64,000 bases of DNA from Candidatus Woesearchaeota archaeon. Lineage in GTDB: Archaea > Nanobdellota > Nanobdellia > SCGC-AAA011-G17 > JACPIM01. Under the pieces are notes generated by a model. The model worked only from the letters and a program-made list of their open reading frames with translations, had not been told where the DNA came from and ran no database searches. A program made the position numbers and the translations under genes. The stretch spans positions 1-64,000 of the forward strand of contig CAZELK010000004.1 in NCBI GenBank assembly GCA_964513145.1, given 5' to 3'. This document shows, one piece after another, positions 227-12,308 of the stretch (positions within the stretch are counted from its first letter, which is position 1; every line of letters begins with the position of its first letter).

Positions 227-363
227 TTATTTTGCAGTTCAGAACTCTTACTTACTAAAAACCCAGTTACTCGACATGATAGCTAATGTAGGGCAGCGGC
301 GATATATCATTCTGACTAATTAAAGAGATGTACAACTTTCATACAGATTGAATATAAATAAAG

Positions 364-418
364 GGCTTTGCCTGACAAGTAAGAGTTGCCCGATAAGTAT
401 TAAATCTGCCTGAATAGT
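364..418 (+). repeat. Left transposon end: TIR plus three phased TGCCYGANWAGT repeats
   Basis: tgcctgacaagt (369-380), tgcccgataagt (387-398), tgcctgaatagt (407-418). Confidence 0.85.
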
Positions 419-454
419 CGGAAAGATTAAAAATTAAGGATTCTTCCAGAATTT

Positions 455-2479
455 ATGATTATTATAGGGAAAAAACAGACATATTGTTTTGAAGGTATTC
501 ATATACCAAGAATTTATATTCATGATGCAAAAAAAGTAAAATATTCATTAGAGCTTTTACAAAAGAAAGGTTCATTAACTAATCAAGAAATGACTGAAGA
601 AACAGAAAGGGTTCGTTCTGAAGACATAAGAGAGATATATTATTTATTGTGGCGTTTAGGATTGGGAGTTGAAGTTTCAAAAAAGGGTAGAAATATAATT
701 TTTGTAGCTAATGATAAATTAGAATCAATATCAGAATTATCTGAAACACAAATAAAAAAACTAATTTTTGAGAGGTTAAAAGAATATAATCCATTCGTTG
801 CAATTTTAGATAAACTATTAGATTATAAAAAAGAAAATAAACATTTTACTGAAAAAGATATAACTAAAGATTTCCATAATGGTAGGGATGATGGTGGGAG
901 AGTAGATAATACCCACCCTATTTTAAGATGGAGCAAAGATGAAGAATGGGGGCTTGTAAAAGAAAATACACTTACAAAAAAAGGAGAGGAATATATATTT
1001 AATGCTAAGAGGTTAGGTATTTTTTATGTTCATCATACAGCAGATTTAGAAGCAAATAATCTTCTAAACATAGTTTGTTATATTCTTTCAAAGAGTTTTA
1101 TTGAGAAGAAGACTGAGATTAATTATGATGAATTATTGGATACAATAAATATCATAGATAATCTTTTCTTAAATCAGAAAAAATTGAAGGAAATTATATC
1201 CAAACTTATAAACAAAGGATTTCCGATTTCGCAAAAGGGAGATATTATAAAAATTAATAATAAAATCTATCATGAGATAACTCCAAAATATTATGTTAAG
1301 TTTGGTCTGAACCACCTTGATGGGATAAGCGAGTTCAGTCAAGAAGAGGAACAAAAGAAATTTGATTATAAAAGATTAGTAAACAAGATAAAAGACTCTT
1401 ATATCATTTTTATCTCGGATGAAGCAATTAGTAAGGAGTTAATTACTAAAGAATCTTGTGTAGTTAATTATGAAGAATTTTTAGAAATAGAGGAGTTTGT
1501 TTCTGAAACAAAAATCAATACAATAATTTTACCTCCTGGATGGAAGCCTTTGAAAGTATCTAAAATTAGTGGAATCTTACTTTCTTTTGTGGGTTTTGGA
1601 GGAAATCTAATTGTTTTTCACGCTCCAATGGGGAGAATTGGTTCAAATAGGAATTTATTTAATTGGCTCCCAGAAGACTTATCAAGAATTTCTTTTGTTC
1701 ATAATTCATTTAATTTGGGAAAAGGATATTTTACATTTCCATTAGGAGAAAAACTATACTTAACGGAAGAATCTTATAAAAAAGAAATCGAGAAAAAAAG
1801 CAATTGTTATATTTTGGCTTCCTTTAAATATAAAAAAGGGTTGATTATTACATCTGGCTATCATCTTGATAAAAAGTTTTTCGGTTTGGATTATATCTTA
1901 GAGGTTTTGAAAAACAGAATAGTAATTAATAAGGACTCTAATAAATGGATTTATAGAAAAATTCCATCAATTAATAGATGGGAAAATGTGAATACAGAAT
2001 ATGACTTATACCCTATATTGAGAAAAATCCTAAAAGAAAATCTTAATTTAGAATTTGATAAAGAAATTACAGGTAAGCCAGGTCAAACTGATTTATTTAT
2101 AGAATCTCCTTTCTTTTGCTGTTGTGAAGTAACACCTCCAGGGATGAATGCTACGGGATTTTCTAAAGTAGCTGAAGTAGAAGGACATAGGAAAACTATG
2201 ATATTCAAGGATAAAAGAAGAGGGTTTACAAATGAAAACGTTGGGGCATGTGTAATAGGTCCTTCTTTTACCATAGAAGCTGGTGAGGATAAATCAGGGG
2301 CGATTGATATGGCTAATGCAATGAATATTTCTTTAATAAGTTATAGAGATATTTATGAATTATTATGCATTTCTGAAGAAAGAAAATTAAGCAGTGAGGA
2401 GATTAAATCAATATTTTTTAATGAAACAAAAGAAGCTTCAGCTTCTTTAAGAATAAGTAAACTAAAGAAATTTATTTAA
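455..2479 (+). CDS. Putative Type II (IIS-like) restriction endonuclease, 674 aa
   Basis: C-terminal PD-(D/E)xK-like segment GKPGQTDLFIESPFFCCCEVT; wHTH-like N-terminal part; convergent with and overlapping two DNA methyltransferases. Confidence 0.65.
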   Translation: MIIIGKKQTYCFEGIHIPRIYIHDAKKVKYSLELLQKKGSLTNQEMTEETERVRSEDIREIYYLLWRLGLGVEVSKKGRNIIFVANDKLESISELSETQIKKLIFERLKEYNPFVAILDKLLDYKKENKHFTEKDITKDFHNGRDDGGRVDNTHPILRWSKDEEWGLVKENTLTKKGEEYIFNAKRLGIFYVHHTADLEANNLLNIVCYILSKSFIEKKTEINYDELLDTINIIDNLFLNQKKLKEIISKLINKGFPISQKGDIIKINNKIYHEITPKYYVKFGLNHLDGISEFSQEEEQKKFDYKRLVNKIKDSYIIFISDEAISKELITKESCVVNYEEFLEIEEFVSETKINTIILPPGWKPLKVSKISGILLSFVGFGGNLIVFHAPMGRIGSNRNLFNWLPEDLSRISFVHNSFNLGKGYFTFPLGEKLYLTEESYKKEIEKKSNCYILASFKYKKGLIITSGYHLDKKFFGLDYILEVLKNRIVINKDSNKWIYRKIPSINRWENVNTEYDLYPILRKILKENLNLEFDKEITGKPGQTDLFIESPFFCCCEVTPPGMNATGFSKVAEVEGHRKTMIFKDKRRGFTNENVGACVIGPSFTIEAGEDKSGAIDMANAMNISLISYRDIYELLCISEERKLSSEEIKSIFFNETKEASASLRISKLKKFI

Positions 2480-3406
2480 TCCTTGTTTTGGTTTCTTCTC
2501 ATTTTCTAATTTTTCTTTTGCTTTTTTAAATTTCTTATAATCTTTAAAAGCCTTTTCCATTTTTTCATTAAGAGAAACTAATTCATAGTCTATACTATGG
2601 TCATAAATCTCTTTTTCAAATGAATCAAATTTTATAGTGCTCACTTTTTTTTCTATAAGCTTACAATATTCCTTAGATAATTCCACAGCAATGGAGTTTC
2701 TACCTAACTCTTTCGCGACTTTGTTTGTGGTCCCACATCCAGCAAATGGGTCTAATACTATTTCATTCTTGAATGAAAAAAGGAGGATTAATCTCTTCGG
2801 CAATTCTTCTGGGAATGGGGCAACGTGTTTCTCATCATTTTTTGGTGAATTAATTGGTGGAATATCCCATACGCTGTATGCCATTTTCCTGATGAATAAT
2901 CTATTAAATTTTGATTCTTTGCTAAAATCAAAATGTCCATTGCTTCCTTTTTGAAATATCAATATATATTCATGATTTATATTTGTATTAAACATCAAAG
3001 GATAAGGATTCTGAGAAAATTGGGTTGCTCCTCTTTGCCATTTTGTTTGACCTCGGGGTTTGTTCCATATAACATCTTTTCTAAAAGTAAATCCTACAAC
3101 TTCAGCATCTCTTACAAAATCCCCAGCAATAAATTTCATACCTTCATTAGAAACAATAGTCCCTATATTTATAGCCATAAATCTTCCATATTTTAAAACT
3201 TTATAGCTTTCTTCAAATACTTTTTTCATATTATGGATATAATCTTGATAACTATCTTTGAATCCAATTTGACTTTTATATCCATAATTTCTTAAATTCC
3301 AATATGGTGGACTAAAAACTATAAAATCTACGCTATCCTTATCAATAAAATTAGATAATTTTCTACTGTCTTCATTAATAATTCTAACGTTTGAATTAAT
3401 TACCAT
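2462..3406 (-). CDS. DNA methyltransferase, beta class, probably N4-cytosine
   Basis: Motif IV FSPPY before motif I LDPFAGCGTT; HVAPFPEELP. Confidence 0.9.
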   Translation of the reverse strand: MVINSNVRIINEDSRKLSNFIDKDSVDFIVFSPPYWNLRNYGYKSQIGFKDSYQDYIHNMKKVFEESYKVLKYGRFMAINIGTIVSNEGMKFIAGDFVRDAEVVGFTFRKDVIWNKPRGQTKWQRGATQFSQNPYPLMFNTNINHEYILIFQKGSNGHFDFSKESKFNRLFIRKMAYSVWDIPPINSPKNDEKHVAPFPEELPKRLILLFSFKNEIVLDPFAGCGTTNKVAKELGRNSIAVELSKEYCKLIEKKVSTIKFDSFEKEIYDHSIDYELVSLNEKMEKAFKDYKKFKKAKEKLENEKKPKQGLNKFL

Positions 3407-4229
3407 TTCCTAATAGATACCTCTTTATTCTTTCTTCTGCTATTTTATGAAACTTTTTATCTATTTCGCATCCAATAAATTTTCTTTTTAATTCAAGACA
3501 AGCTATAGCAGTAGTTCCAGAACCTATAAAACAATCTAAAACAATATCCCCTTCTTTTGAAGAACTTTTAACAATCCATTTTAATATTTCAACTGGTTTT
3601 TGTGTTGGATGTTCTGTTCCTTCCAATTTACTTTTTCTTGAAATTGAAGAATGCGAAATAACACTTAAAGGAAACCTTCTACCATCTTTGAATATTGTAT
3701 GATTTGCTTTCCAATTATTTCTAACTGTAGAAATTACTTTATTTTTTCTTACATAGGGTTTTCCTGGAGTTTTTATACTTTCTAAATCAAAATAAATAGA
3801 ACTCGTTTTAATACCTTTCTTCTTAAAACACCAGATTAATTCATGAGACCTCATTGGCATAAAATTAGAAGCCCAAAATCCTTTTCCTTTATTCCAAACT
3901 AATTCAAACCTAAACTCAAACAAATCTTTTATTTGATGATATGTCTCCGATAACATTGGTTGTTTTCCAAAAATATAAACTTGACCATGGTTTTTTAATA
4001 TTCGTGAAAATTCTCTTTTTATTGTTTCCCACTCATTAAAATTATCCCATTCTTTAGGTAATTCATTATAAGGTGGGTCTATTACAATTAGATTAACTGA
4101 ATCATTATCTATATTTTTTAGATATTCTCTACAGTCCATATTTTTAATTTTATTTAATTCAATCTTACTTTCTTTTAAAGATTTATTAAAAGAATAAATC
4201 TTATTTTCTAGTTCAATCTGATAAGTCAT
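3396..4229 (-). CDS. DNA methyltransferase, beta class, probably N6-adenine
   Basis: Motif IV IDPPY, HPTQKP, motif I LDCFIGSGTT. Confidence 0.9.
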   Translation of the reverse strand: MTYQIELENKIYSFNKSLKESKIELNKIKNMDCREYLKNIDNDSVNLIVIDPPYNELPKEWDNFNEWETIKREFSRILKNHGQVYIFGKQPMLSETYHQIKDLFEFRFELVWNKGKGFWASNFMPMRSHELIWCFKKKGIKTSSIYFDLESIKTPGKPYVRKNKVISTVRNNWKANHTIFKDGRRFPLSVISHSSISRKSKLEGTEHPTQKPVEILKWIVKSSSKEGDIVLDCFIGSGTTAIACLELKRKFIGCEIDKKFHKIAEERIKRYLLGNGN

Positions 4230-4432
4230 TTTCTTTTATCCCCTTTGTTAAATCTTACTTTAGGTTTATTCCAGTAAGGAGATTTGCAAAAAGGACAAAC
4301 AGTAGGAATAAAACCTTTTTCCTGAGGTAGCCATTCATGAGAACAACGATAACACCTGTGACCAATCAAATTAACGTTAGCACCAGCTATTACCCACTCT
4401 TTTTTTTGCATATTTCCCTTTAAGATGTTCAT
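4226..4432 (-). CDS. Small Zn-ribbon protein, first gene of the methyltransferase operon
   Basis: CYRCSHEW...VCPFCKSPYWNKP; stop overlaps MTase start; divergent from the transposase. Confidence 0.75.
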   Translation of the reverse strand: MNILKGNMQKKEWVIAGANVNLIGHRCYRCSHEWLPQEKGFIPTVCPFCKSPYWNKPKVRFNKGDKRK

Positions 4433-4458
4433 CTTAATAAATTTAATGTCTAAACGTA

Positions 4459-4542
4459 TATATAAACATTTGTATTATAATATTATTAATATGTTATCTT
4501 TAATATATTATTAGTGTAATAACAAATAGGAATGTTTATATA
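4459..4542. promoter_or_regulatory. Divergent archaeal promoter pair (back-to-back TATA boxes)
   Basis: Perfect 12-bp inverted repeat TATATAAACATT (4459-4470) / AATGTTTATATA (4531-4542), each containing TTTATATA, between divergent genes. Confidence 0.55.
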
Positions 4543-4587
4543 TTAGATAGTATATACCTATGTATAATATAACAATTAACATAGGAG

Positions 4588-5829
4588 TTGATAAAAATGA
4601 AAATCAATCAATTAAATGAAAGCAATTATAAAAATCTGACAAGAGAACAAAGAGGATTAATTATAGCACAAAAATACAGGATAACAAAAACAAATGAAGG
4701 TTATAAAGTGCCGTCGCAGTTCGGCTATGGACATTATAATGTAAAAATAAAAAGCATAGGGGAAGAATGCGACTGCCCTGATTATGAATTAAGAAAGCAC
4801 AAATGCAAACACATTTTTGCAGTTGAATATATTTTAAAGAAAGAAGTAGATGTTGATGGCAATATTATCATAACACATACAAAGAAGATAACATACCAAC
4901 AAGACTGGAAGAACTATAATTTATCACAGCAGAAAGAAAAAGAATTGTTTATGAAATTATTGAGTGATTTGGTAAAAGGAATTACACAGCCAGTTTATAA
5001 TTTCGGCAGACCTAAAACACAGTTAAGTGATGCTGTCTACTCTATGATTTTCAAAGTTTATTCTGGATTCTCTGGCAGAAGATTTGCAACTGACATGAAT
5101 AATTCTTTAAACAATAATTACATAGAACAAAAAGTCCCTTACAATACTATGTTTGATTATTTTAACAAAAAAGAATTAACATCATTATTAACTGAAATGG
5201 TAAAGATAACAAGTCTACCTTTAAAAAATATAGAAACTAAATTTAGTGTTGACAGCACTGGATTTGGAACTTCAGTTTATCAGAGATGGTTCAGCTATAA
5301 ATATGGAAAAGAGATTGATTCTAGAAAATGGCTTAAATGTCATATTGTAAATGGCGTTCAGACAAATATAATTACTGGAATAGAAATAACAGCAGAATAT
5401 GACAATGATTGTCCTGAATTAAAATCTCTTGTAAAACAGACAGCAGAAAACTTTACAATAAAGGAAGTTTCAGCTGACTTGGCTTATTCTTCACGAGAAA
5501 ATTTAAAATTAATTGATGACTTAGGCGGAACTGCATACATTCCTTTCAAAAGCAATGCAACTGGAAAAGCAAGAGGATATTATATTTGGACTAAAATGTA
5601 TCATTATTTTCAGTTTAAAAAAGAAGAGTATCTTCAACATTATCATCTGCGTAGCAATAGTGAGACTACAATGATGATGATTAAAAGCAAGTTTGGTGGC
5701 TCTTTAAGAAGCAAAAAATGGACTTCGCAAGTAAATGAATTATTATGTAAAATAATCTGCCATAATATTTGCTGTGTAATTACTACTATGTTTGAATTAG
5801 GAATAAACCCAGAATTTAGTTTAGATTAA
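4588..5829 (+). CDS. Transposase: N-terminal SWIM Zn finger plus IS4/IS5-like DDE domain
   Basis: SWIM CDCPDY...CKHIFAV; DDE residues in FSVDSTGF, VSADLAYSS and RSNSETT; intact 413-aa ORF; ATG at 4597 after GGAG. Confidence 0.9.
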   Translation: MIKMKINQLNESNYKNLTREQRGLIIAQKYRITKTNEGYKVPSQFGYGHYNVKIKSIGEECDCPDYELRKHKCKHIFAVEYILKKEVDVDGNIIITHTKKITYQQDWKNYNLSQQKEKELFMKLLSDLVKGITQPVYNFGRPKTQLSDAVYSMIFKVYSGFSGRRFATDMNNSLNNNYIEQKVPYNTMFDYFNKKELTSLLTEMVKITSLPLKNIETKFSVDSTGFGTSVYQRWFSYKYGKEIDSRKWLKCHIVNGVQTNIITGIEITAEYDNDCPELKSLVKQTAENFTIKEVSADLAYSSRENLKLIDDLGGTAYIPFKSNATGKARGYYIWTKMYHYFQFKKEEYLQHYHLRSNSETTMMMIKSKFGGSLRSKKWTSQVNELLCKIICHNICCVITTMFELGINPEFSLD

Positions 5830-5841
5830 ACTCTTTTCTGT

Positions 5842-6291
5842 TTAAATTGCTTGATGGATTAAATAAAGAATGTTCAAAACACGATAAACTCTAAGAAAAG
5901 TGAGAAAACACAGATAAATTAAGACAAAACTCAGTAAGAAAGTATTAATATAAATCCCAGATATAAACAGATATCCTAAAGAATAAATTAAGGCAATAAA
6001 AGTGACTATTATTGTGGTTATAAATCTCTCATAAATTTGTCCAAATAATCCAGCTTTTTTTATTTTTTCAAGTGTAAAACTTTTTTCAGTATCAAGCATA
6101 AAAAGAATAGTGAAAGCAGTGATTACAAACCCCAATAGTGTTCCATATAGACCAACTAAAATGCCTCCAACAGAATTAAAATCAAAATTAAAATTTATGT
6201 CAAATTTATTAATTAGAAAACCAGATATTGTAAAAATAACTAGTAAAATTAATGAATCATACCAAATTGAGTTTTTCTTCAAATTAACCAT
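5842..6291 (-). CDS. Multi-pass membrane protein, transposon cargo
   Basis: 3-4 hydrophobic helices; overlaps the stop of the upstream soluble gene. Confidence 0.8.
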   Translation of the reverse strand: MVNLKKNSIWYDSLILLVIFTISGFLINKFDINFNFDFNSVGGILVGLYGTLLGFVITAFTILFMLDTEKSFTLEKIKKAGLFGQIYERFITTIIVTFIALIYSLGYLFISGIYINTFLLSFVLIYLCFLTFLRVYRVLNILYLIHQAI

Positions 6292-7189
6292 TTAATTTAT
6301 TATCATTATATTTATCTTCAAAATCTCTTTTAATTAATCTAAATAATTCAGTTTCATTCCCAACATAATATTCTTTAGTTTGTGGCGGATAAAACTTTAT
6401 AATTTGGTCTTTCAGATTTATTCTTGGTTGAATTTCACTATCAATCTCAAAATATATAGTTCTTAAAAGACTTCCAAAATCAACAGAAGTAATATCTGAC
6501 AAGTTTTGTATTTTAAACAACTTTTTCAAAAAATCCTTGAATAATTGCCCCTTTCCTTTAGACCATTTAATTAGCAATTCACAATCTAATTCTTCTTTTT
6601 TTAATTCTTTAAAGGCATCTTCTACAACCCCTATTTTTTCTATGTCTTCTGTTGGAATATTCTTTTTTAGCCTTAATCTTGCCAAAGTTATTTTATTTTC
6701 CCCGATAGCATTTAAAACAGGAATCAAGTCTCCACCTAACTTTTGTTTTGTTCTTATATTATTTTTATTAAGTCTTTCTTTCAAGTAAGTAACAATCCCC
6801 CCAATATTCAATGCAAATGGTACATCTTCTACTATTAAGAGTCTATCACCATTTTTCTTGTTTATATATAAAATAAAATAAATTACTCCTCTTTCCAAAG
6901 TACAAATTCCAGAACCTTCCCCCAAATCTATTTCAATCAATTCTCCAAATTTTTCTTCCTTAAAATCTGTAGTTTTATGTGATTGAATTAGTTTCCCAAA
7001 AAAATAAATGTTATTTTCAATCTCTTCTTTAATCATAATTTGTAAATGGTGTCTTGAATCCGACTTATCAATATAGAAAGGAGGTTCATCAGACTCAGTT
7101 TCTTCTTTTATTTTGTCAAATAGTTTTATAATTTTCTCGTCTTCAACATCTTCTATTTGTAGGTCGTGAAAATAAAAGCGAGTTTCCAT
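6284..7189 (-). CDS. Soluble hypothetical protein (DUF4747/DUF6731-like), transposon cargo
   Basis: Long ORF; the listed TTG start at 7318 lies inside the right TIR, so ATG at 7189 (METRFYFHDL) is preferred; family assignment is by impression only. Confidence 0.6.
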   Translation of the reverse strand: METRFYFHDLQIEDVEDEKIIKLFDKIKEETESDEPPFYIDKSDSRHHLQIMIKEEIENNIYFFGKLIQSHKTTDFKEEKFGELIEIDLGEGSGICTLERGVIYFILYINKKNGDRLLIVEDVPFALNIGGIVTYLKERLNKNNIRTKQKLGGDLIPVLNAIGENKITLARLRLKKNIPTEDIEKIGVVEDAFKELKKEELDCELLIKWSKGKGQLFKDFLKKLFKIQNLSDITSVDFGSLLRTIYFEIDSEIQPRINLKDQIIKFYPPQTKEYYVGNETELFRLIKRDFEDKYNDNKLNG

Positions 7190-7259
7190 AATCTCTTTAT
7201 GAATTTCTTGCCTTTTAAAAAATATGTTGTTTTTCATAACTTCTTTTAGATTAAGATAG

Positions 7260-7322
7260 TGCCCGAAAACTATTAATTCTGCACGAAAAGTCTTACTTTT
7301 CAAAGACTTTACAGGCAAAGCC
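7260..7322. repeat. Right transposon end: two subterminal repeats plus TIR
   Basis: tgcccgaaaact (7260-7271), tgcacgaaaagt (7280-7291), inverted terminal copy in 7306-7322. Confidence 0.85.
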
Positions 7323-7374
7323 TAAATAAAGCAAAATTATATAAAGTAAAAATCAATTAAATAAATATATCAAA

Positions 7375-8661
7375 ATGAAAAAAGGTGAAATTTATATTTT
7401 ATTATTTTTAATAATCTCTTTAATATTAATTTCCTTTATAGTTGTTGCAGCAACAAATACTCCTACTGAAAATGGAAACCAGCCTTCTTCAGGCAACTGC
7501 ACTTATGGCACTTACCAATGCAATGGCGATTATGTGCAAAAATGTGACAGTTCACAATGGTTTGATGCAGACTATTGCAAGACTGGATGTACTGATGGTC
7601 AATGTAATAAGGGGTCTTATGAAGAACTACCAGAAACACCACCAGAACCAAAACCATATCAAGAAACACCACCAGAACCACAACCATCTGTTGATTTGCT
7701 TGAGTGCCAGTATCTATGTGATTTAATTGCAAAAAATTGTGGGAATATGAATATAGAAATAAATGAATGTAACAAAAAACACAATAAATGTTCTGAAAAT
7801 TGCTCTATACAATTTCCTTTGGAAGAACCTTTATCAAACAATTTTGCAGACTATGGAGATGCTCCTGATCCAAATTTTCCAAGCCTAAAGGCAAACAATG
7901 GGGCAAGACATTTAAACACACAATATGAATGGCTTGGTCTTGATGTTACTAAAGAAGTTGACTCGCGCCAGATTGATCTTGATGAAAAGGATGATGGTAT
8001 TGCAACATCTAATTTATTATCTGGTTTTTATACATGTTTTCAAAAAGTAATACCAGTAATTGTTTCTGTTAAGAACAGAAATTATCCAATCCATGCTTAT
8101 TCGAATAATAATTTGCTTTATCTTAATATGCTATTTGACTGGAATCAAAATGGAGAATGGTCTGGTGGAACTTTCTGTGGTCCTACTGAGATTTTTCCTG
8201 AACATGCAGTCGTTAACTATCCTATTAATGTAAGTGCTTGGCCGCCAGGAGTAACAACAAAGATAATTAATATTCCTGTGAGAACTGGTGGATCAGTAAT
8301 AAATAGCTGGATCAGAGCAACCTTGACATATAACCAGCAAGTTAATTTTCCTTGGGATGGTACAGGAACATTTGATTTTGGAGAAACTGAAGACTATGGT
8401 CCACAAGGTTTGCATAGTGAACCACCCTCAAATGAATCTATTCCACCTAGATATGAAGAGGAATCGCCAAATGAAAATCCACAATCCACGAAAGAATCTG
8501 ATAACAGAGAATGTCAGGGCAATAATGAATGTGAAAGTAATGTTTGTGCAAACGGAATTTGCATAACAGTACCTGAAGAACAAAGAGAGCAACAGTCAGG
8601 AATAGTTATTAATACAGTAGTGCAGGCAATAAAAAATTTTTTTATAAATTTATTTCAATGA
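7375..8661 (+). CDS. Secreted/surface GEVED-domain protein with Cys-rich and Pro-Glu linker regions
   Basis: N-terminal hydrophobic signal; DYGDAP...LFDWNQNGEW...WIRATL...GETEDY; ETPPEP repeated twice. Confidence 0.8.
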   Translation: MKKGEIYILLFLIISLILISFIVVAATNTPTENGNQPSSGNCTYGTYQCNGDYVQKCDSSQWFDADYCKTGCTDGQCNKGSYEELPETPPEPKPYQETPPEPQPSVDLLECQYLCDLIAKNCGNMNIEINECNKKHNKCSENCSIQFPLEEPLSNNFADYGDAPDPNFPSLKANNGARHLNTQYEWLGLDVTKEVDSRQIDLDEKDDGIATSNLLSGFYTCFQKVIPVIVSVKNRNYPIHAYSNNNLLYLNMLFDWNQNGEWSGGTFCGPTEIFPEHAVVNYPINVSAWPPGVTTKIINIPVRTGGSVINSWIRATLTYNQQVNFPWDGTGTFDFGETEDYGPQGLHSEPPSNESIPPRYEEESPNENPQSTKESDNRECQGNNECESNVCANGICITVPEEQREQQSGIVINTVVQAIKNFFINLFQ

Positions 8662-8970
8662 CCATAATTTGATAATGATTTAATATAATAAATATTTTGA
8701 ACATATTAATGGAACTTATAAGACTAGTTCTCCAAACATACGCAACTAGCACATGGTAGGGTCGCGGAGTTATACAATTTTGACAAATTGAAGTATATAT
8801 ATGGAGAGAATCTAGTTATTGGCGATAAAATTATTACTAAAAATAATATTAAATATTTTAATTTCATAGTAAATTTGTTCTATTTTTATATCTATGGATT
8901 TATTGCTCTACAAACTATATTATATAGTATAAGAAACATTTATATATTGTCTTAAAGCAAAATTATTTAC

Positions 8971-9705
8971 ATGGAAGAACAATCTAAAAAAGAAGAATTC
9001 ACAATTAAAAAGTCAAGTTTATGGAAAATTTCTACATTTGTTTTTGGTATATTATTAATAATTTCTATTTTTACAGGCGGTTTTGGTTATGGTAAAAGTG
9101 AAATAACAGGAAATGTTGTTGTTCCAACAACAAATGAACCGCAGGATCAATTTCCTACAATTTCAGTTAATATGAAAGATTTGGTTGATGAGGATAAAAT
9201 AAAAGGTGATGTTAATGCCCCAATTACTATAGTTGAGTTTTCAGATTATGAATGTCCTTTTTGCGGAAGATTTTTTGCACAAACATTGCCTTCAGTAGTT
9301 CAAGATTATATAAATTCTGGAAAAGCTAGGCTAGTTTACAGGGATTTCCCATTGCCTTTCCATCCTAATGCCCAAAAAGCAGCTGAGTCAGCTGAATGCG
9401 CAGGAAAACAAAATAAATATTATGAAATGCATGATAAAATATTTACAAATCAACAAACTTTAAGCCTGGAAAATTATAAAAAATGGGCAGGTGAAATTGG
9501 ATTAAATACTGATGAATTTAATACATGCTTAGATTCTGGAGAAACTGCTTCAGAAATTCAAAAAGATCTTCAAGATGGAACAGCAGCTGGAATTCAAGGT
9601 ACACCAGGTTTCATAATAGGAAAAACTAATGGAAACAGTGCAAGAATAATTTCAGGGGCATATCCATTCTCAGCATTCCAAGAAGTTATTGAGTCGCAGT
9701 TATAA
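8971..9705 (+). CDS. Membrane-anchored DsbA-family thioredoxin
   Basis: EFSDYECPFC, YRDFPL, GIQGTPGF; N-terminal TM helix. Confidence 0.92.
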   Translation: MEEQSKKEEFTIKKSSLWKISTFVFGILLIISIFTGGFGYGKSEITGNVVVPTTNEPQDQFPTISVNMKDLVDEDKIKGDVNAPITIVEFSDYECPFCGRFFAQTLPSVVQDYINSGKARLVYRDFPLPFHPNAQKAAESAECAGKQNKYYEMHDKIFTNQQTLSLENYKKWAGEIGLNTDEFNTCLDSGETASEIQKDLQDGTAAGIQGTPGFIIGKTNGNSARIISGAYPFSAFQEVIESQL

Positions 9706-9737
9706 ACATTCTTAAGATATATTAGAGAAGTAGCTTT

Positions 9738-10520
9738 ATGGGAAATGAAGAAATAGAAATAAAAAAATCCACTTTAATTATTGGGGTTGTTGTAATTATT
9801 GCTTTTATAATTTTAGTTTCCTTTTTAATTGGGTTAATTACAAATCCCAAAGATGATGGTGATAATAAGCAAACCATTGAATTTAATCCAAAAAACCTGA
9901 TAGATGATGATACAATTTTAGGTAATAAAAACTCAAAAGTAACAATAATAGAATTTTCAGATTATCAATGTCCTTTTTGCAGAAAAGCTTACAAAGAAAT
10001 AATGCCCTTAGTAAAAGAAAATTATGTTAAAACTAATAAAGCAAAATTGATTTTTAGGGATTTTCCATTGACAAGATTACATCCATCAGCATTAATAGCA
10101 GCCTTGGCAGCTGAATGTGCAGATGATCAAAATAAATTCTGGGAAATGCATGATAAAATTTTTGATGAACAAAATAAAAAAGGATCTGGAACAGTATCAT
10201 TTGGTCCCGAGGATTTAAAAAAATGGTCTAATGAAATTGGAATAAACAATGAAGATTTTAATTCATGTCTTGATTCTGAAAAATATATAGACGAAGTTAA
10301 AAATGATTTAGTTCAGGGAACAGCTTTTGGCATTTCCGGAACACCAACTTATTTTATTTTTACAGATAGCATAGAAAAGAAAGATGAAATTAAAAATGCA
10401 GTTCCAAGTGAATTTAAAAATTTTGTTACTTTCATTAACAATGAACAACTAACTGGTGTAAGCTTTGCAGGAGCAATGCCTTTTGAATTATTTAAATCAG
10501 TAATAGAAGCAATGCAATAA
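9738..10520 (+). CDS. Membrane-anchored DsbA-family thioredoxin (tandem paralog)
   Basis: EFSDYQCPFC, FRDFPL, GISGTPTY. Confidence 0.92.
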   Translation: MGNEEIEIKKSTLIIGVVVIIAFIILVSFLIGLITNPKDDGDNKQTIEFNPKNLIDDDTILGNKNSKVTIIEFSDYQCPFCRKAYKEIMPLVKENYVKTNKAKLIFRDFPLTRLHPSALIAALAAECADDQNKFWEMHDKIFDEQNKKGSGTVSFGPEDLKKWSNEIGINNEDFNSCLDSEKYIDEVKNDLVQGTAFGISGTPTYFIFTDSIEKKDEIKNAVPSEFKNFVTFINNEQLTGVSFAGAMPFELFKSVIEAMQ

Positions 10521-10522
10521 AA

Positions 10523-10867
10523 ATGGATGAAAATTTAGAAGATAAATTAAGCTTGGATCCTTTAGAACAAGCTAGAATCAAAAATATTTTAGAAACTGTA
10601 GAGAAACAAATTATTGAAATTCAAAGACAACGTAACACTTTTAGGGGAAGAGTTTCTAAATATGTTTCTAATATTACAGATTTTATTACAAGAAAAGGAG
10701 ATTGTATTCTCTATACTTCCTCTCTTTTAACAGTAAGCGGATTTAATATGTATAATGCAATTGAAAATAGTAACAAAAATCATGAAGCTGCTTTAGGTTA
10801 CGGATTGATTTCTATTGTTGCTGCTTGGTCTGCAGGAGTAATTTTTGAAAGTTATAGACATAAATAA
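10523..10867 (+). CDS. Hypothetical membrane protein
   Basis: 114-aa ORF in operon position with C-terminal hydrophobic segments. Confidence 0.6.
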   Translation: MDENLEDKLSLDPLEQARIKNILETVEKQIIEIQRQRNTFRGRVSKYVSNITDFITRKGDCILYTSSLLTVSGFNMYNAIENSNKNHEAALGYGLISIVAAWSAGVIFESYRHK

Positions 10868-11056
10868 TTATTTTCTTTGATCTAAGGGTATAATTATCCA
10901 TGCTAAGATATAAACTAATATCCCAATACCCATTCCAAAAACAAAAAATAGCCAGATTAATCTTACAATTATTGGGTCTATATTAAAATATTCCCCAATA
11001 CCACCGCAAACTCCAGCTAAAATTCTATCATTTTTCGACCTATAGAGCCTTTTCAT
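10868..11056 (-). CDS. pspC: PspC domain protein
   Basis: MKRLYRSKNDRILAGVCGGIGEYFNIDPIIVR...YILAWIIIP; start moved to ATG at 11056. Confidence 0.9.
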   Translation of the reverse strand: MKRLYRSKNDRILAGVCGGIGEYFNIDPIIVRLIWLFFVFGMGIGILVYILAWIIIPLDQRK

Positions 11057-11361
11057 AAAATAAATTTCTCCACAGTCCCTAATTTGCTGCAATAAGGGCA
11101 CATTCCCTGAAATTCCTTATTTCTAGTAAAACTATATTTACAAGAAGCACATTGGTATTTGAACTTTTTATTTTGACTTTCAACTTTAAAATTATTAAAT
11201 TCTTTTTCAGGCTGTCTTAATTTTTGATGCATTGGGTGCTGCAAAGAATAGCAAGAAGTGCAAACCCATTTTCTCCCTTCCTTATCAGCCTTTAAGTCAT
11301 TTAATGGTACTCTTGTACTGCATTTAGAGCAAGCAATTAAACTTTCTTTTGAAGCAAGCAT
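11053..11361 (-). CDS. Double Zn-finger protein
   Basis: CSKC..CTSC and CASC..CPYC. Confidence 0.7.
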   Translation of the reverse strand: MLASKESLIACSKCSTRVPLNDLKADKEGRKWVCTSCYSLQHPMHQKLRQPEKEFNNFKVESQNKKFKYQCASCKYSFTRNKEFQGMCPYCSKLGTVEKFIL

Positions 11362-11468
11362 TTTACTAAAATAATTTACTTTTAAATTTATAAACTTTAT
11401 TAAGACATTTCATTATAGATAATAAATCAATAATAATATAAAGAACTATGCATATTAGTTGATTTTAT

Positions 11469-12308
11469 ATGGAGAAAATTGACAAATTAAGATTTAGTAC
11501 TTCTGGAATACCTTTGTCAACAAAAAAAACAGGTACAATTGAAGGCATAAAAAGAATAAAAGAATTAAATTTAGATGGTCTTGAACTTGAATTTGTAAGG
11601 TCTGTTTATATAAAAAAAGAAAATGCTTCAGAAATAAAAAAAATTGCATCTGAAAATAACGTTGTTTTAAGTTCCCATGCTCCTTACTTTATAAATTTAA
11701 ATTCAGATGACAAGAAAAAGTTTTACGCCAGTATTGGATACATAAAAAACTCAGCTATAATAACTTCCTTATGTGGTGGTTATTCAACTTGTTTCCACGC
11801 AGGTTATTATCAGAAAATTGATCCAAAAAAAGTATATGAAAAAATAAAAGAAGGATTAAAAATAATTGTTAAAGAAGTAAATGAAATTGATAAAAAAATA
11901 TGGATAAGGCCTGAAACAACTGGGAAAATATCTCAGTTCGGGACAATTCATGAAATTATAGATTTAAGCATGGAATTTGACAATGTTTTGCCATGTATAG
12001 ACTGGTCACATCTTCATGCCTGGTCTAATGGAAAATATAATACATCAGAAGAATTTAGAGAAATTTTAATTTTAATGGAAAAAAAATTAGGCAGAAAAGC
12101 ATTGGATAATGTGCATTTTCATTGTCAGGGTGTAGAATATAATGAGAAAGGCGAAAGATGGCATTTAAATTTAAAAGAATCAGATCTAAAATATGAAAAA
12201 CTTTTAAATATATGGAAGGAATTTAAATTAAAAGGAGTAGTTATAGCAGAAAGCCCGAATGTTGAAGGCGACGCAATGCTTCTTAAAGAAATATATTATA
12301 AAAATTAA
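11469..12308 (+). CDS. nfo: Endonuclease IV (AP endonuclease, TIM barrel)
   Basis: HAPYFINL, FHAGYY, RPETTG, CIDWSHLHA, HFHCQG. Confidence 0.9.
   Translation: MEKIDKLRFSTSGIPLSTKKTGTIEGIKRIKELNLDGLELEFVRSVYIKKENASEIKKIASENNVVLSSHAPYFINLNSDDKKKFYASIGYIKNSAIITSLCGGYSTCFHAGYYQKIDPKKVYEKIKEGLKIIVKEVNEIDKKIWIRPETTGKISQFGTIHEIIDLSMEFDNVLPCIDWSHLHAWSNGKYNTSEEFREILILMEKKLGRKALDNVHFHCQGVEYNEKGERWHLNLKESDLKYEKLLNIWKEFKLKGVVIAESPNVEGDAMLLKEIYYKN

Follow-up and report, generated by a model that had tools for sequence, protein, structure and literature searches.

A probable IS903-related unit transposon carrying a candidate Type IIS restriction-modification system in a woesearchaeotal genome

Limits and gene content of the element

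We analysed a 64,000-nucleotide stretch of DNA (the window; positions 1 to 64,000 of contig CAZELK010000004.1) from a Candidatus Woesearchaeota archaeon (assembly GCA_964513145.1), in which a mobile unit of 6,959 bp occupies positions 364-7322. Its inverted repeats are tipped by GGCTTTGCCTG. The left terminal repeat (364-380) reads GGCTTTGCCTGACAAGT and its inverted partner (7306-7322, minus strand) GGCTTTGCCTGTAAAGT; the two arms match at 15 of 17 positions and are identical over the first 11. Each terminal repeat is abutted by a copy of the 9-bp target-site duplication TAAATAAAG, at 355-363 on the left and, in identical form, at 7323-7331 on the right. The terminal inverted repeats and the exact 9-bp duplication that an initial annotation had read from the sequence are thus both present. 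A degenerate search for the 17-mer over the 64-kb window, allowing up to three mismatches, returned just these two exact sites against 0.43 expected, and the exact 11-mer repeat tip has one further copy in the whole genome (978 kb, 18 contigs), within unrelated sequence. TAAATAAAG itself is a frequent word (8 copies in the window, 6.2 expected), and the duplication therefore carries weight only through exactly abutting both repeats. The decisive evidence is comparative: the boundaries are trusted because the same tip, together with an exact 9-bp duplication, bounds 46 related elements.

The element contains seven intact open reading frames (ORFs), at 455-2479 and 4588-5829 on the plus strand and at 2462-3406, 3396-4229, 4226-4432, 5842-6291 and 6284-7237 on the minus strand, one more than the six genes originally counted. 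One repeat pair and one duplication enclose the single transposase gene and its passenger genes. No flanking copies of an insertion sequence (IS) are present, and neither further copies nor solo ends were found in the 978-kb genome, where the element is single-copy. This supports its earlier description as a unit rather than a composite transposon. The contig starts only 354 bp before the element, and a fragment of a DUF5615 gene (PIN-like toxin family) lies at 2-226 on the plus strand, directly left of the insertion.

Conserved machinery and insertion target

The transposase (413 aa; 4588-5829, plus strand) consists of a SWIM zinc finger (PF04434, residues 60-81) followed by a DDE_Tnp_1 catalytic domain (PF01609, residues 218-394, E 1.2e-19). 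In an alignment of 26 sequences, the SWIM ligands C61, C63, C73 and H75, the DDE triad D222, D297 and E359, and the YREK residues Y352, R355, E359 and K366 were all invariant. The top NCBIfam model was IS5_2 (residues 106-394; 121 bits, under the 140-bit cutoff), and other NCBIfam matches were to IS5, IS1182, ISNCY and IS4. Since the IS5_2 match begins at residue 106, the first ~105 residues form an add-on to an IS5-like body. The AlphaFold2 (AF2) model, at a predicted local distance difference test score (pLDDT) of 70, matched RNase-H-like transposases and integrases. More than 2,865 homologues were scored, most of them ~60% identical and from Woesearchaeota and Nanoarchaeota metagenomes.

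Searching a single genome for each of 185,579 species yielded 556 loci, of which 80 were fetched for analysis. To delimit elements, we looked for exact direct repeats of 9 bp on either side of the transposase gene, each adjoining an inverted repeat. At 46 of the 80 loci, RGCTTTG-tipped ends with exact 9-bp duplications surround 2,733-11,371 bp, and most of the remaining loci are interrupted by contig ends. None of the 46 delimited elements is transposase-only. At loci where one end lies on the contig, 54-72 bp from the transposase gene, the second end was never nearby, and no IS-sized member was found among relatives of the same taxonomic order either, SWIM-poor ones included. Terminal repeats placed immediately around the transposase ORF, an arrangement that would have spoken against the cargo proposal, were thus seen neither in the 46 delimited elements nor in close relatives. 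Four transposases from the same order (L110-L113; G003:C6:41753-42682, G006:C80, G025:C5 and G032:C28) match only from about residue 100, with 41-43% identity, and may lack the SWIM region or have it replaced; they nonetheless lie within 2-7-kb elements with GGCTTTGCA ends.

Of 41 relatives, 13 carry the family, which has a patchy distribution and is mostly single-copy. Besides DPANN archaea, its hosts include several other archaeal groups, Dehalococcoidia, Chloroflexia, Blastocatellia and Eremiobacterota. The initial annotation had suggested a cargo-carrying family of DPANN archaea. The cargo part of this proposal is borne out (0 of 46 elements being transposase-only), but the restriction to DPANN is not, given members in Chloroflexota, Acidobacteriota and other groups. 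Spread of the family by viruses was considered and rejected, as 2.9 million viral contigs contained only 11 relatives.

Which parts of the element are conserved is most clearly seen from a close relative. A transposase 94% identical to that of the window (P0001) lies in a 6,009-bp element (L090) at another site, with the duplication TATTTTATA. The two elements share only ~30 bp at the left tip, a block corresponding to window positions 4226-5821 (91% nucleotide identity) and 65 bp at the right end (94%). The shared block comprises a gene for a 68-aa Zn-ribbon protein (4226-4432, minus strand), the transposase gene and, between these divergent genes, an intergenic region (4433-4587) that is presumably a control region and is as conserved (~91%) as the genes on either side. 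The cargo of L090, an Eco57I-type Type IIG enzyme, a 219-aa ORF and a Cdc6-like ATPase, is wholly different from that of the window element. These comparisons show that the cargo lies in two arms flanking a conserved core and is swapped between elements.

The Zn-ribbon protein has weak zinc-ribbon Pfam matches only, and its motif, C.RC.H.W.P...CP.CKSPYW, recurs in the same divergent position upstream of the transposase gene in ~14 elements from both archaea and bacteria. In other elements of the family this position is taken by a ribbon-helix-helix, AbrB-like or helix-turn-helix protein. The stop codon of the Zn-ribbon gene and the start codon of the first cargo gene overlap in the sequence ATGA (4226-4229), as they do in L090, suggesting that the left arm is probably expressed from the core promoter region. 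Judged from its conservation, the small Zn-ribbon protein may regulate expression of the transposase or of the cargo.

The two ends are unlike each other. The 'A' end (364-418, plus strand) contains the left terminal repeat and three direct copies of the 12-mer TGCCYGAnnAGT, at 369-380, 387-398 and 407-418 (offsets +6, +24 and +44). The 'B' end (7260-7322, minus strand) contains the right terminal repeat and lies within the 65 bp shared with L090; its three 12-mers are one direct copy at 7306-7317 and two inverted copies at 7280-7291 and 7260-7271 (offsets +6, +32 and +52). In bacterial members, the 'B' end has an inverted copy at +32 and a direct copy at +55. The layout is constant across the family while the 12-mer sequence co-varies, and extra copies occur at 19.5 per kb in the ends compared to 1.4 per kb inside the elements.

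The insertion sites also follow a pattern. In archaeal members, the duplication is followed on one side by the consensus gaAAa.TTTATAAA; among 28 sites, 25 have A at +3 and +4, and 19-23 have T at +7 to +9. Scores of at least 8/10 against this consensus were reached by 23 of the 28 archaeal sites compared to 1.3% of 200,000 random positions in the AT-rich genome of the window, an enrichment somewhat inflated because the consensus was built from the same sites that were then scored. The window site scores 9/10. Directly after its duplication lies the target promoter (7332-7345, plus strand), a CAAAAT resembling a TFB-recognition element (BRE) followed by a TATA-like TATATAAA, and the gene served by this promoter begins at ATG 7375. 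We also considered whether the element always faces the promoter with the same end and rejected this, as orientations were split 15 to 12. In ~11 Chloroflexota members (L041, L051, L060, L063, L066, L068, L074, L077, L080, L086 and L088), the duplication is instead the 9-bp loop between the inverted repeats CCCCTCT and AGAGGGG, a palindrome that may be a terminator or a repeated extragenic palindrome.

Cargo in the two arms

To describe the cargo across the family, we searched 127 ORFs, each 120 aa or longer, taken from the delimited elements. The commonest matches were to N6_Mtase (19), Eco57I (14), N6_N4_Mtase (10), Methylase_S (9), Mrr_cat (4) and MmeI_Mtase (4), with others to HSDR_N, ResIII, PD-(D/E)XK, HNH and AAA_21. 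PADLOC agreed, matching the cargo to Type I, II and IIG restriction-modification models. Judged by these matches, the cargo consists mostly of putative restriction-modification genes. Some elements have no recognisable genes of this kind, for example L014, which carries ABC transporter genes.

The left arm of the window element encodes a 674-aa protein (455-2479, plus strand) and, tail-to-tail with it, two DNA methyltransferases of the N6_N4_Mtase family: M1 (314 aa; 2462-3406, minus strand; PF01555 E 2.9e-44, PADLOC MTase_II E 1.4e-57) and M2 (277 aa; 3396-4229, minus strand; PF01555 E 9e-42, PADLOC MTase_II E 1.7e-47). The 674-aa ORF gave no usable match in Pfam, NCBIfam, PADLOC, PHROGs or PDB-sequence searches. 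Its AF2 model (mean pLDDT 85.8) matched FokI (Foldseek E 1e-6; VIA Z 14.7) and N.BspD6I (Z 13.6). The predicted C-terminal PD-(D/E)XK domain (~residues 496-668) matched the small catalytic subunit of R.BspD6I with a Z of 11.4 and a root-mean-square deviation of 3.1 over 155 residues, and in structure searches it also resembled NucS/EndoMS and HindIII. The protein thus resembles FokI and BspD6I in having N-terminal winged-helix recognition domains and a C-terminal PD-(D/E)XK cleavage domain, and the two partner methyltransferases beside it are as expected for an asymmetric Type IIS site. It differs from FokI and BspD6I in showing no detectable sequence similarity and in an extra middle domain.

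Twenty homologues of the 674-aa protein were found. A homologue stands beside two N6_N4 methyltransferases in three contexts that are unrelated and had no SWIM-DDE transposase call in the vicinity: next to a resolvase and a primase, next to integrases, and on a Methanofastidiosum chromosome. In the first of these (L106:4528-12220), the trio adjoins a serine resolvase and an AEP-type primase, suggesting that it travels on several kinds of mobile element. On the evidence of fold and gene context, we read the left arm as a Type IIS-like restriction-modification system with the 674-aa protein as its candidate endonuclease. If so, the window would add a putative new family of nucleases with FokI architecture, with ~20 known members.

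The right arm encodes a pair of proteins. The first gene (6284-7237, minus strand) encodes a soluble protein of 317 aa with 13 homologues, and the second (5842-6291, minus strand) a membrane protein of 149 aa with about four transmembrane segments by hydropathy analysis. The ATG at 7237 is favoured as the start of the first gene over a TTG inside the terminal repeat because the homologues are mostly ~317 aa long. Among homologous loci, the 149-aa gene is invariably downstream of the 317-aa gene, and the pair recurs in the opposite arm of another family member (L120) at 73.5% nucleotide identity. Searches of Pfam, NCBIfam, PADLOC, PHROGs and PDB sequences gave nothing usable for the 317-, 149- or 68-aa ORFs, and for the ORFs without a family the ESM Atlas gave weak leads only (DUF6731/DUF4747 and RexB-like), which were not relied on. 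From its combination of a soluble and a membrane protein and the weak Atlas leads, the pair is possibly an abortive-infection or addiction module, though this is only a guess. The earlier view of the cargo as defence genes therefore holds for the left arm, where fold and gene context point to a Type IIS-like system, and not for the right-arm pair, which has no demonstrable defence identity. The pair also occurs in two cargo transposons with an IS240/IS6-like transposase of ~300 aa (L119:7973-12421 and L121:7876-10885). These have their own inverted repeats and 8-9-bp duplications, with the 317-aa and ~150-aa genes just inside one end, and L119 additionally carries an EcoRI restriction-modification system.

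Mobility, alternative explanations and known systems

We consider that positions 364-7322 are an intact, probably recently inserted unit transposon belonging to a large IS903-related family of cargo carriers, and give this reading a probability of about 85%. The conserved machinery would consist of the SWIM-bearing DDE transposase, the divergently encoded small DNA-binding protein and the two unlike three-site ends. Transposase molecules would bind the six 12-mer sites and pair the 'A' and 'B' ends, and DDE chemistry would then move the whole segment, the target being cut with a 9-bp stagger. The low copy number suggests a cut-and-paste mode. In archaea, the cut would be positioned to leave the duplication immediately next to a gene's BRE/TATA; with the duplication in this position, insertion breaks neither the gene nor its promoter. 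The left arm would deliver a nuclease with a FokI fold together with two methyltransferases, each specific for one strand, whose genes would form an operon headed by the Zn-ribbon gene.

Several points weigh against this reading. For a Type IIS-like left arm, the TM-scores of the FokI match are low (~0.2) because the domains are differently arranged, and the middle domain (~residues 310-488) is flavodoxin-like and unlike FokI. The transposase model is of only moderate quality, and the roles given to the SWIM domain, the Zn-ribbon protein and the 12-mers come from conservation alone. The single copy in the genome gives no sign of recent activity in this host. Furthermore, no empty site was found, and no syntenic flank was detected at the DNA level in 40 relatives. 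The predicted empty site reads GATTGAATA-TAAATAAAG-CAAAATTATA. A 33-nt probe for the empty junction and a 28-nt probe for the left flank were both absent from JGI metagenome contigs, which is uninformative since the population is not in that collection. An exact-protein look-up with the right-flank gene returned one occupied contig from a second sequencing run (L102) and one other contig (L103; run SRR12113383). L103:1-60 corresponds to the window from 7324 onward, so that this contig begins 1 nt into the right duplication. The break is suggestive of an assembly-graph branch, such as an occupied/empty polymorphism would produce, but is no proof of one.

The absence of an empty site, the single copy and the same occupied site in the second sequencing run would also suit a fixed relic, which once transposed but is now immobile in this lineage, retained for its cargo or with a domesticated transposase. 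We regard this as very unlikely, since all seven ORFs are intact, the duplication is perfect and all six 12-mer sites are kept; in addition, a 94%-identical transposase is found at another site alongside other cargo, no catalytic or SWIM residue varies, and the distribution among relatives is patchy. It is hardly credible that the outer repeats are a product of chance or of a composite structure, and that a smaller IS enclosing the transposase gene is the true mobile unit. The duplicated 9-mer does occur frequently in the genome, as this would allow, but no inverted repeats surround the transposase gene, the next gene starts 12 nt past its stop codon, the 11-mer tip is essentially unique, and 46 relatives share the outer boundaries while none has inner ones. 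A more plausible, if still doubtful, alternative concerns what the cargo is for. The restriction-modification genes, and perhaps the membrane pair, may serve the transposon mainly as addiction modules, with anti-virus defence as a by-product. Consistent with this, no cargo is commoner than restriction-modification genes in hosts of very different kinds, the methyltransferase genes are translationally coupled to the core Zn-ribbon gene in both the window element and L090, and the three-gene module rides in other mobile contexts with a resolvase, primase or integrases. The selfish behaviour of restriction-modification systems is, moreover, already established, Kobayashi and co-workers having reportedly described them as selfish units. 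The elements without recognisable restriction-modification genes, such as L014, fit this account less well; the present data do not separate addiction from defence, and the two are not mutually exclusive.

The promoter-adjacent target could itself have arisen by survivorship, if the transposon inserts at many AT-rich sites and only insertions that spare genes and promoters persist. DPANN genomes are gene-dense and AT-rich, such a bias is expected for any transposon, and the orientation of the elements to the promoter is random. We nevertheless consider survivorship unlikely, since the register is exact to the base, selection alone would permit varied distances within intergenic DNA, and the bacterial members have a different but equally precise target, the 9-bp loop of the palindrome. 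A speculative and, in our view, rather improbable extension of the targeting reading is that the transposase recognises the archaeal pre-initiation complex, in which TBP and TFB bend the DNA, and that integration takes place upstream of the BRE at a distance of exactly one 9-bp stagger. Either the SWIM finger or the small Zn-ribbon protein might then mediate this recognition; in the bacterial branch, the machinery would have been redirected to palindromes that can form hairpins. If true, this would be the first promoter-complex-guided 'safe-harbour' transposon of archaea, a counterpart of Ty3 or TnGBS. It would then also be a natural vehicle by which restriction-modification systems spread among archaea, DPANN included, and might serve as a genetic tool for these organisms.

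Among known systems, the nearest by transposase is the IS903 group. IS903 itself makes a 9-bp duplication. Genuine IS903-type (L104, 1,057 bp) and IS17 (L105, 1,039 bp) elements from plasmids start with GGCTTTGTTG, and residues 221-405 of the window transposase share 28-30% identity with the transposases that they encode. The window element shares with IS903/IS903B and IS17 a DDE_Tnp_1 domain with the YREK signature, GGCTTTG-starting repeats and the 9-bp duplication, so that the IS903 kinship put forward in the initial annotation is real but distant. IS903-type elements are ~1.05 kb long with one gene and repeats 30-50 bp from the ORF, whereas elements of the SWIM-DDE family are 2.7-11.4 kb long and always carry cargo; with 6,959 bp and seven ORFs, the window element lacks the compact ~1-kb, transposase-only form of the group. 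The family differs from IS903 in five respects: the SWIM N-terminus of ~105 residues, the obligate cargo, the partner gene, the unlike three-site ends and the precise targeting.

Other systems share single features. The TnGBS/ISLre2 elements, with Mutator-like DDE transposases, insert a fixed short distance upstream of sigma-A promoters and so avoid gene damage (PMC3942029). They belong to the Mutator/IS256-like superfamily, use bacterial sigma-A promoters and carry conjugation genes, whereas the SWIM-DDE family has an IS4/IS5-like transposase, archaeal BRE/TATA targets, random orientation and restriction-modification cargo. Since IS903 has a single short repeat, the nearest analogy for the ends is found in the multi-site unlike ends of Tn7 or Mu. 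Tn7-like transposons choose safe insertion sites and carry defence-rich cargo. Their unlike left and right ends also contain several transposase-binding sites, a functional analogy only: they use TnsB/TnsC and make a 5-bp duplication, whereas the window element has a single IS5-like transposase and a 9-bp duplication, and Pfam and NCBIfam scans found no TnsA-, TnsB- or TnsC-type gene in it. Eukaryotic Mutator-like elements (MULEs) likewise have a SWIM zinc finger in the transposase, ~9-bp duplications and, in Pack-MULEs, passenger DNA. The catalytic domain in the window is, however, PF01609 rather than a MULE domain, and the SWIM finger lies at the N-terminus, not at the C-terminus; Pfam detected only PF01609 and PF04434 in the transposase and no MULE-type (IS256-like) catalytic domain. 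The resemblance looks like convergence or domain shuffling, not membership.

A literature search, with ISfinder and TnCentral outside its scope, found no published description of the SWIM-DDE cargo family, which is apparently undescribed. An IS903-type enzyme, usually found in 1-kb insertion sequences, is here an obligate cargo carrier with a SWIM finger, a partner gene and Tn7-like multi-site ends. The vehicles that move restriction-modification systems are rarely defined; here the vehicle is explicit, has exact ends and is abundant, and it appears to shuttle systems of Types I, II, IIG and IIS in archaea (DPANN and others), Chloroflexota and Acidobacteriota. Base-precise insertion beside BRE/TATA would be a rare case of promoter-directed targeting in archaea and offers a testable link between transposition and the transcription machinery. 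Insertion next to promoters might also provide a safe-site integration tool for organisms with almost no genetics.

One locus of the family has a more complex structure. In L117:4139-16669, a family member at 4401-11788, with the duplication TATAGACAT, is apparently nested in a 12.5-kb segment whose limits are GGTTCTGTCGCA inverted repeats and the 9-bp direct repeat TCGAAAATC. The outer segment may be a second type of transposon, or its repeats may have arisen by chance.

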